Shown here in pieces: positions 4,735 through 18,272 of a stretch of DNA of 30,612 nucleotides (the first letter of the stretch is position 1; every line of letters begins with the position of its first letter). A program made the position numbers and the translations under genes. The notes beneath the pieces are model-generated. The model saw nothing but the letters and a program-made list of their open reading frames with translations, ran no database searches and had not been told where the DNA came from. The DNA is from a virus (lineage: Duplodnaviria > Heunggongvirae > Uroviricota > Caudoviricetes), in IMG/VR virus record IMGVR_UViG_3300036985_002287, positions 1 to 30,612 of that record. One strand, written 5' to 3'.

Positions 4735-5870
4735 CAAGGTAGAGATGCAGTCATACCTCGCTATACAATCTTCTGCCATTGAGCCTTGGTCTACCGAGAC
4801 ATTTGCAGGCCTCGGTAACATCTATGAGCACTGGGAAAAACAGTTAGCGAGGTATTAATACCGGGCCGCAGCCTCGGTAACTTTAAGCTTACTGGGCCAA
4901 CCTGCTACCGAGACTGAAACTCTTCGGTAAGTAAGCACCAACTAACCCTATCGAAACCCTTTCTATCGAAATTCGAAACTCTCGATACCCATTTCACCTT
5001 TCGATAGAGTTTCGGTATTCGAGTTTCGGTTTTCTATATTGAAAAGGATTTCATAATGATACCCTATCAAAGAGTATCTATAGAGTATCAGATAGATAGA
5101 AATTCTCTGCGGACATAGTATAAACTGTAGGCATAGTATAGATAGGATTTCACAAATGGCGATAGGGCCTTGATGCCCTTTATTAAATTAACTATATCCA
5201 TCGCATGACGAAACATTGGCGCGTGCAGGCATATATGTAAATCAATATCGCTTTCTGCATTATATGCGATATCCGCAACTAACTATAGGACTCAATACCT
5301 ACTGGTTTATCATTTATTATTCGCTGTTATACCTGTTTGCGAAATGTAATAGATATGTGATAGAACTTCTAACTGCTGGCCAATGCTCGTAAGCGACTTT
5401 AAGAATAGCATATCTATCTAATTTACTACAATGTTATTTATCATATAGAGCATCAATGTGTACTACTGTTCGATAGAGTATCTACCTGATGCCAGTTGCT
5501 ATACCTTCATGATGGTGCAGGTGATACAGTGTTTACGGTAGCTGTAGTGTAAGATAGGGTATCGATAGAGTATCAGAAGGTGTTCAGATAGGGGTATGTG
5601 TTTAGGTAGAGGTATGTGTATAGGGTATCTACCTTGTGTGCATAGCGATAGATAGAGTATCTACCTTAAGCAATGATAGCCAATGAGATAGGTAGAAATG
5701 CATACACGCACACATCTATCGAGCGCGAATGCGAAATCCGCGTGCGAATCTGCGCCCAAAACCCTATCTAGAAATGTCGCCTAGGATTCCTATCTAGAAT
5801 TCCTACCTTAAAGACCAAATCTGACCTGGAAATCTACCGAGAGAGGCGAGCTCGAATTCATTCAAACCAT
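4735..5870. repeat. ~1.1 kb ORF-poor region with nested inverted repeats and dispersed short repeats (origin-like, unproven)
   Basis: IR ATACCTCGCTA 4753-4763 / 4845-4855; TACCGAG/CTCGGTA pairs; GAAACTCT-type motifs 4916-5027; GATAG(A/G)GTATC-type motifs 5071-5666. Confidence 0.55.
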
Positions 5871-17855: not shown

Positions 17856-17888
17856 AAAAAGCGGCAACCATTTGCATAGCTGCCGCTT
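17856..17888 (-). terminator. Rho-independent terminator closing the putative ncRNA
   Basis: AAGCGGCAGCT...GGTTGCCGCTT followed by TTT. Confidence 0.75.
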
Positions 17889-18226
17889 AGTAGGTTAGAA
17901 CAGTTGATCCATAAAGGCGCTGTAAACCAGGTATAGAGTCAGTCACGAACCTTTCTACCTTATAATAAAAAGGGAGTTTCTAATGATTCCCTATATTTAG
18001 AATTCTTACTGTGAAGGCTAACTTCTCTAGCGCAAGCAGCGCATCCTGGTTCACGCCAGTTCGGTTATGCAGGGGCCAGGTTGCTCAGGCCTTCTTATAC
18101 TCGGTCGGTAAAATAATTCACCAAATTAGAATGCACAAATCTATCACCATCGGCAAACAGTGATGTCGCAGGGTTGCCGCCCTACCGCCCCGCTGGGCGT
18201 CTATACACTCTAATTTGGTATCTTAG
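17856..18226 (-). ncRNA. Putative ~370-nt structured non-coding RNA (family unassigned)
   Basis: Own consensus promoter 18232-18260 and own terminator; no ORF; 20-bp closing helix with G-U pairs enclosing three hairpins. Confidence 0.6.
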
Positions 18227-18272
18227 CCGTAATTATATGATAAAATATACAAACTGTCAACAAGTATTTAGT

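Follow-up and report, generated by a model that had tools for sequence, protein, structure and literature searches.

The window analysed here, 30,612 nt of DNA, opens a 101-kb IMG/VR record, of which it covers the initial 30.6 kb. CheckV estimates the completeness of this record at 26%, and it is therefore taken as a fragment of a giant phage. Sequence comparison relates this phage, which is uncultured, to T4 and PA5oct. Genes on the minus strand are arranged in short units, many of them provided with near-consensus sigma-70 promoters and stem-loop terminators. The RNA unit described in this work is located between a gene coding for an AAA-ATPase-like protein, which is 43% identical to the proteins of PA5oct-like Pseudomonas jumbo phages and 34% identical to those of T4-type phages, and a gene coding for a small winged-helix (wHTH) protein. 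The features of the region are collected in Table 1.

Table 1. Predicted features of the RNA unit, of its surroundings and of related loci. Positions refer to the window unless preceded by the name of another locus.
Feature	Position	Strand	Remarks
RNA at a distance, behind a promoter	21373-21286	minus	10-bp closing stem
AAA-ATPase-like gene	19623-18487	minus	phrog_1250; upstream neighbour of the RNA unit
Pseudoknotted RNA element, ATPase 3' UTR	18486-18301	minus	~165-196 nt, right after the ATPase stop codon
Upstream stem-loop terminator	18300-18274 (stem-loop 18300-18279)	minus	read from sequence; also in L003
Sigma-70 early promoter, TTGACA-17-TATAAT	18260-18232	minus	12/12 consensus match, top site in 3.3 kb
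Module 1	18219-18106	minus	orphan junction and A/U-rich tail
Four-way-junction RNA	18219-18120	minus	P1 and hairpins H1, H2, H3; predicted MFE fold
Closing helix P1	18219-18200 with 18139-18120	minus	20 bp, 4 G.U, 0 mismatches
Hairpin H1	18199-18186	minus	fold prediction
Hairpin H2	18185-18168	minus	fold prediction
H2 loop, CGGCAA	18179-18174	minus	complementary over all 6 nt to UUGCCG of the H3 loop
Hairpin H3	18164-18143	minus	fold prediction
UUGCCG in the H3 loop	18156-18151	minus	partner of the H2 loop
Single-stranded A/U-rich tail, GAAUUAUUUUACCG	18119-18106	minus	unpaired in MFE; ends in ACCG before the shared ACCGAG
Module 2, linker	18105-17993	minus	113 nt, four 4-bp hairpins; found only with L003 and L085/L086
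Module 3, 3' core	~18002-17853	minus	in the whole sub-clade
Hairpin AGGGA-12 nt-UCCCU and U-tract, AGGGAAUCAUUAGAAACUCCCU	17992-17967 (hairpin 17992-17971)	minus	weak, -5.8 kcal/mol
Conserved 3'-core hairpin	17927-17894	minus	holds 7 of 8 compensatory pairs
Intrinsic terminator	17888-17859 (element 17888-17853)	minus	13-bp stem, -20.8 kcal/mol
Promoter driving the wHTH gene	17854-17826	minus	11/12, with extended TG
Winged-helix (wHTH) gene	17798-17553	minus	81 aa; HTH_39 domain, E = 7.8e-10
Stem-closed RNA outside the window	G000:C1:41041-41150	minus	~19-bp closing stem
tRNA-like RNA family	L003:6774-6988		180-235 nt
tRNA-like RNA family	L085:6304-6518		
tRNA-like RNA family	L089:4646-4826		
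tRNA-like RNA family	L098:5080-5314		
Proteo-phage-1-like RNA	L003:8296-8376		near-threshold Rfam match
NUMOD3 homing-endonuclease gene, free-standing, antisense	L167:1514-2194	minus	ATPase-wHTH slot; same as L002 ~5160-5810
NUMOD3 homing-endonuclease gene, free-standing, antisense	L172:2494-2826		ATPase-wHTH slot

A first-pass annotation of this DNA had described the interval as a self-contained, highly structured transcript of about 370 nt, with its own promoter and terminator and no credible ORF. The signals that delimit the unit were recovered: the promoter lies where it had been placed, with every consensus position matched, and the terminator annotated at 17888-17856 is a strong stem-loop. 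Transcription would start around positions 18226-18224. The U-tract of the terminator overlaps the -35 box of the promoter driving the wHTH gene. The RNA contains no sense-strand ORF of 25 aa or more, and the three small ORFs overlapping it, of which two are antisense, gave no hit in Pfam or PHROG, so that a hidden small protein was rejected. The sequence thus supports an ORF-free unit, predicted to run from promoter to terminator. The claim of high structure was too wide, since only the junction described below and the terminator are highly structured, and the 370 nt are a composite.

The distinctive part of the unit comprises about 105 nt, a helix of 20-21 bp that bears three G+C-rich hairpins. 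The closing helix P1 was confirmed as annotated, with 20 pairs of which four are G.U and none is mismatched, and the three hairpins that it encloses keep their coordinates in the predicted four-way junction. The minimum free energy (MFE) structure appends a terminal U.G to P1, extending it to 21 bp, and pair probabilities in this helix range from 0.75 to 1.0. The 5' strand of P1 starts with ACCA, and about 5 nt are left unpaired at the predicted 5' end of the transcript, before the junction. The 110-nt segment holding the junction has an MFE of -50.7 kcal/mol (z = -6.4), and the MFE structure accounts for 26% of the ensemble. Folding of the opposite strand gives -31.5 kcal/mol (z = -2.8), which is 19 kcal/mol weaker. 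When 20,244 overlapping 110-nt segments covering both strands of the 101-kb record were compared, the junction ranked first, with -5.5 sd after correction for GC content, and the runner-up was found at -4.4 sd. According to these folding statistics, the junction structure is real and goes far beyond chance. The first-pass annotation had taken pairing through G-U wobbles as a sign of selection on the RNA. In agreement with it, the fold is strand-specific and P1, as transcribed, departs from Watson-Crick pairing at four positions, each of them a G.U, an outcome for which we estimate p ~0.06 or less if P1 were a passively decaying DNA palindrome. As the junction shows zero sequence variation, support for its structure comes entirely from thermodynamics, strand asymmetry and context.

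According to the model, six nucleotides of the H2 loop can pair with six of the H3 loop. The loop-loop duplex would be worth -8.8 kcal/mol, and the chance of finding such complementarity is ~0.001. Part of the H3 loop is hidden in the MFE structure. Freeing UUGCCG costs about 3 kcal/mol, because the H3 stem then has 6 bp instead of 9 bp.

Compared with related loci, the 370-nt unit is a mosaic of three modules with different histories, and not one coherent structured RNA. The linker that follows the junction is 82% identical to that of the related locus L003 from ACCGAG onward. This ACCGAG is the breakpoint of the homology with L003, and the right junction carries a duplication, ACCG directly followed by ACCGAG. 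In L003 and L085/L086 the linker comes after a tRNA-like RNA instead of the junction. The short GGCC, CTGG and GCGC hairpins annotated behind the junction are present, but they are not exceptional, as the 150 nt that contain them fold like shuffled sequence (z = 0.07). The fourth small hairpin of the linker shows one compensatory change between the window and L003 (GAAG/CUUC versus GGAG/CUCC). The GGGA..TCCC hairpin with its U-tract is also there, but it is weak and was not scored as a terminator. Its stem and inner pairs are identical in six lineages that are otherwise 20-35% divergent, its 12-nt loop differs among them by one base and one indel, and it is kept in the cassette-free locus L166. 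This conservation of sequence suggests a recognition site for a sequence-specific protein or nuclease, more than a terminator. The 3' core occurs even where no promoter precedes it, and its consensus fold shows compensatory changes in 8 of 22 pairs among six sequences, nearly all of them in a single hairpin.

The absence of hallmarks of tRNA, tmRNA, SRP, 6S, RNase P or hammerhead RNAs, as read in the first pass, was borne out by database searches. Rfam 15 gave no match at gathering thresholds in the whole window, and none of the tRNA, tmRNA, SRP, 6S, RNase P and ribozyme families was matched. At E <= 10, Rfam returned a single weak, partial match of terminator type, STnc130, confined to the upstream stem-loop outside the unit. 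ARAGORN detected no tRNA or tmRNA in the window, and thus no tRNA adjoining the RNA unit. Its relaxed runs gave only noise, and one permuted tmRNA call at the 50% threshold was judged spurious.

Particular candidates were also examined, using for the gene content this record and three related ones (G000-G003), one of which, G003, is complete (364.6 kb). A tRNA is defined by a cloverleaf with a 7-bp acceptor stem, a T-loop (UUCRANY), GG in the D-loop and a 7-nt anticodon loop; it was rejected because neither ARAGORN nor the Rfam tRNA model gave a match, the stem has 20-21 bp and there is no T-loop motif. A tmRNA, in which a tRNA-like domain with G3:U70 is combined with a tag reading frame and pseudoknots, was rejected as well, given the negative ARAGORN and Rfam results and the lack of an SmpB gene in G000-G003. 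Y RNA or YrlA would come with a nearby Ro60 (TROVE) gene, a terminal stem with a Ro-binding bulge and a tRNA-like module; there is no TROVE gene in the four records and no Rfam Y_RNA match, and P1 has no bulge. A retron msr-msd would show terminal inverted repeats and have a reverse transcriptase gene beside it. The ends of the RNA do pair, but G000-G003 contain no RVT_1 gene and the neighbours are the wHTH and ATPase genes. Finally, an antisense regulator was rejected, since no complementarity longer than 13 nt was found between the RNA and the rest of the 101-kb record. This result favours an action by shape.

The first-pass annotation had proposed a search for homologs in related phages, and here the outcome was negative: the only other copies of the junction are 100% identical, and none of the searches returned a diverged homolog. 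The whole intergenic region has no homolog among 50,697 cultured phage records, and exact and degenerate patterns of the junction core or of its stem are absent from IMG/VR and GTDB genomes. The outer-stem pattern gave one IMG/VR match (L202), located inside a gene and taken as chance. Save for this match, neither the 5' strand of P1 nor the outer-stem pair was found with a different insert on any other IMG/VR contig. A single-sequence covariance model (R1) recovered only itself in G000 and nothing in four related phage records and 27 metagenome loci. No stem resembling P1 was found in G003, in spite of its 45 tRNAs and structured spacers.

Relatives of the locus were collected with the ATPase as anchor (~160 related loci), and further contigs were obtained by exact-protein and homologous-protein look-ups. 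Six further contigs, which come from at least four other samples, carry the whole 688-nt interval, with no substitution in the junction and one SNP elsewhere. The sites of these contigs correspond to JGI 3300037042, SRR11849211/20, ERZ4201064 and ERR3856788. The junction is therefore not an assembly artefact. In the near-isogenic L166, the flanks are identical and the stretch from the ATPase stop codon to 18003 is replaced by a 55-nt terminator, with no cassette. L002, with 86% ATPase identity, has no junction either, and its slot holds another promoter and, in antisense, a NUMOD3 homing-endonuclease gene. Since it is absent from L166 and L002, the junction cassette is dispensable and could be young or neutral. 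It may lie at or near a homing site. Other relatives have in the same slot small protein genes, a protein of 467-473 aa or nothing, while L003, L085/86, L089 and L097-99 carry at exactly this position an RNA of 180-235 nt with tRNA-like ends. The slot thus differs by whole cassettes, exchanged at stem-loop/promoter (terminator-promoter) junctions, and by its sequence it is a hyperplastic cassette site.

Hyperplastic regions of T4-type phages hold PeSL (promoter-early stem-loop) cassettes (Arbiol et al. 2010, PMC2839356). The locus is similar to them in its layout. At either edge of the unit, a strong sigma-70-type early promoter is predicted immediately after a terminator stem-loop (18300-18279/18260-18232 and 17888-17859/17854-17826), and the first of these pairs is, as read from sequence, the left PeSL-like cassette junction. 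Close relatives gain, lose or swap whole cassettes (the window compared with L166, L002, L003, L088 and L089), and the region is rich in small non-essential cargo. The locus differs from PeSL cassettes in that the cargo is a structured RNA instead of an ORFan protein gene, and in its host phage, an uncultured giant phage whose ATPase has 43% identity to those of PA5oct-like phages.

The RNA that occupies the slot in sister phages has an acceptor stem, a reduced D-arm, a canonical T-arm and an encoded ACC(A) end, with a large variable insert replacing the anticodon arm. It can be compared with the tRNA-like domain of tmRNA. Its 5' strand reads GAGCUGU or AUGUUGU, the conserved 5' motif is UGUUAGUUUAAC.AGA.GCA, and the T-arm GGUUCGAAUCC is followed by the 3' strand of the acceptor and by ACC(A). 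Acceptor stem, inner helix and T-arm covary, with compensatory changes in 10 of 23 pairs and 94.6% of cells paired, compared with 34-56% in slid controls. The RNA of L089 carries G3:U70. This family was recognised neither by ARAGORN nor by Rfam, nor in cultured phage records. When L003 is aligned with the window, the upstream stem-loop and -35 box are 94% identical over 53 nt and homology ends directly after TTGACAGT; the upstream part and the linker match, and only the RNA module in between differs. Junction and tRNA-like RNA therefore share the cassette position, the stem-loop and -35 box that precede it, and a final ACC, but the junction lacks the T-loop, the 7-bp acceptor stem and the large insert. 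As the same promoter context and linker flank the tRNA-like RNA in L003/L085, a non-coding RNA cargo is normal for this slot. Descent of the junction from the tRNA-like RNA was considered in view of shared islands (UUAG-7 nt-AGACGC and UAGGGC) and was rejected, because an HMM of the family has no match in the window; the family motifs are likewise absent from 18225-18106. Given this negative result, we regard the two RNAs as analogous occupants of the slot and not as detectable homologs.

Taking these data together, we propose, with a probability of roughly 55%, that the unit is an accessory early small-RNA gene, the cargo of a PeSL-type cassette, and that its orphan junction RNA of ~105 nt acts by shape. 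The proposal builds on what is shown for the element: its promoter and fold statistics, the asymmetry between strands, its modular history and the fact that it is dispensable; from them we infer a course of transcription, processing and target binding. The host polymerase would strongly transcribe the unit at the start of infection. The long perfect P1 helix would shield the RNA and would probably also be a stalk for double-strand processing of RNase III type, two roles that we assign to P1 because of its length and perfection. The A/U-rich tail would be a single-strand cleavage site of RNase E type. Processing would then free a stable, tRNA-sized RNA with three hairpins, which would bind or titrate a host or phage protein by its shape, and not by antisense pairing, during host take-over or counter-defence. 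The junction RNA is, in our opinion, probably a processed protein-binding or decoy RNA. Any role as a decoy, antitoxin or anti-defence RNA, as imagined in the first pass, is speculation. The idea of a new phage ncRNA made there stands in so far as an ORF-free unit belonging to no known family is concerned, but it has to be tempered by the absence of the element from a near-isogenic phage and by its mosaic composition.

A small-RNA gene at this position would fit with what is found in related systems. The tRNA-like RNAs occupy the same slot, and this genome has other long-stem (stem-closed) or T-loop RNAs behind early promoters, both of which are, by analogy, in line with it. As in the RNase III stalks of rRNA leader-trailer helices and T7 early-RNA sites, a 5'/3' helix of ~20 bp surrounds a folded insert of ~60 nt. 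The T4 RNAs known as species 1 and 2 (rnaC/rnaD) are encoded in tRNA operons and have tRNA-like ends. Together with T-even tRNA genes, they resemble the unit in being early, non-coding and tRNA-sized, and in lying in variable regions beside homing endonucleases. An analogy can also be drawn with the tRNA loci that T-even phages carry beside homing endonucleases, which serve as counter-defence (PMC13096335) and would fit the small-RNA gene proposed here.

Other explanations were weighed. A neutral passenger comes first in likelihood, then a cis-acting leader, then a self-assembling RNA and lastly a DNA-level element. It is unlikely, in our view, that the junction is a neutral or decaying passenger, that is, a recent fragment or recombination by-product (an inverted duplication or a piece of an RNA gene) standing without function behind the cassette promoter. 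The element is an orphan with zero variation in a single lineage, L166 is near-isogenic and lacks it, the slot is a recombination hot spot with a homing endonuclease in relatives, and the duplication of ACCG at the right junction resembles a microhomology join. Against this, its fold is the most extreme in 101 kb, specific to one strand and with all its wobbles on the transcribed strand, and three G+C-rich hairpins are stacked in a clean junction with two mutually complementary loops. The perfect-consensus promoter and the intactness of the element in at least four other samples also speak against it.

We find it rather improbable that the junction is a cis-acting leader, either a 5' stabiliser or an antiterminator of put or EAR type that would provide readthrough of the weak internal hairpin and the terminator into the wHTH gene and farther downstream. 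Its position would suit such a role, as it comes directly after the transcription start, with only ~5 nt unpaired at the 5' end, and upstream of two terminator-like hairpins and a regulator gene. But the wHTH gene has its own 11/12 promoter right after the terminator, and phages without the junction keep the same downstream arrangement. Moreover, the slot of sister phages holds a stand-alone tRNA-like RNA with an encoded ACC(A) end, and Rfam reveals no similarity to put or EAR.

The complementary loops raise a further scenario, to which we give little credit, in which they would pair between molecules, hand in hand, to form dimers, rings or filaments acting as an early scaffold or sponge. The loops belong to adjacent arms and their 6-nt complement is perfect (-8.8 kcal/mol), and there is precedent in natural RNAs shorter than 200 nt, phage-associated motifs included, that form homo-oligomers (PMC12286853; bioRxiv 10.64898/2026.07.01.735769). 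The long 5'/3' helix and the multi-helix junction also recall the layout of phi29 pRNA (RF00044; PMC3753930), which likewise has two mutually complementary loops and forms a ring on the portal through loop-loop pairing between molecules. pRNA differs in having a three-way junction and a 4-nt complement, where we find a four-way junction and 6 nt, and the element described here is dispensable and belongs to an unrelated phage lineage. The pRNA family RF00044 gave no Rfam match to the window even at E <= 10. The evidence is a single sequence that shows no covariation, the loops may just as well kiss within one molecule or not at all, part of the H3 loop is buried in the MFE structure, and dispensability speaks against a core role such as packaging. 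If the scenario were true, phi29 pRNA or the recently solved RNA-only assemblies would have in the junction RNA a small counterpart carried by a cassette.

Finally, we consider most improbable that the element acts at the DNA level, as a cruciform or single-strand DNA signal, which might be a target of recombination or of a nuclease, or a replication origin with priming from the early promoter. The order of a strong promoter and then a non-coding, A/U-rich stretch recalls T4 origins, and the slot of relatives attracts a homing endonuclease. But the element is dispensable, and on the other strand the four G.U pairs become A.C mismatches, 19 kcal/mol worse, so that no symmetric cruciform is possible.

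An accessory small-RNA gene, the reading that we prefer, would widen the current picture of these regions. The hyperplastic early regions of T4-type and giant phages are usually regarded as reservoirs of small ORFan proteins that serve host take-over and counter-defence. Here, the same mobile terminator-promoter cassettes have a purely RNA cargo, the orphan junction in the window and the tRNA-like scaffold RNA in the sister phages. Should the junction RNA be expressed and bind a host factor, giant phages would have an RNA arm in their early accessory arsenal. Nature already provides variants that carry the cassette and others that lack it.

The locus also provides two uncatalogued RNA elements with covariation support. 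The 3' UTR of the ATPase gene contains a conserved pseudoknotted element, found in 12 distinct versions (the window and L087-L094, L097, L109 and L115). It has 34 pairs, including a 6-bp pseudoknot (CCUGUAUC/GAUACAGG versus CCUGUGCA/UGCACAGG), with 93.8% of cells paired and compensatory changes in 14 pairs, compared with 0-4 in slid controls. It corresponds to no Rfam family, with a sub-threshold Chlorobi-1 match in L089 only, and to no cultured-phage match.

More structured RNAs were observed at a distance from the unit. The RNA at 21373-21286, which ranks sixth in stability, contains a T-arm-like AGG-UUCGAGU-CCU and a 9-bp hairpin besides its closing stem. In the same record, outside the window, a stem with G.U pairs encloses a structured insert and is followed closely by a Shine-Dalgarno sequence and ATG; this RNA lies near the tRNA genes and ranks fourth in stability in the record. 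The Proteo-phage-1 RNA match in L003 scores 39.5 bits (gathering threshold 42; E = 7.5e-4). The complete relative G003 (L183-L201) has 45 tRNA genes and a canonical tmRNA with the tag ANADTFALVA. Its tRNA array, at 3.8-15.7 kb, includes spacers with several T-loop-bearing structured RNAs, and a repeated hairpin, AGAAUGC...GCAUUCU, follows two of the tRNA CCA ends.
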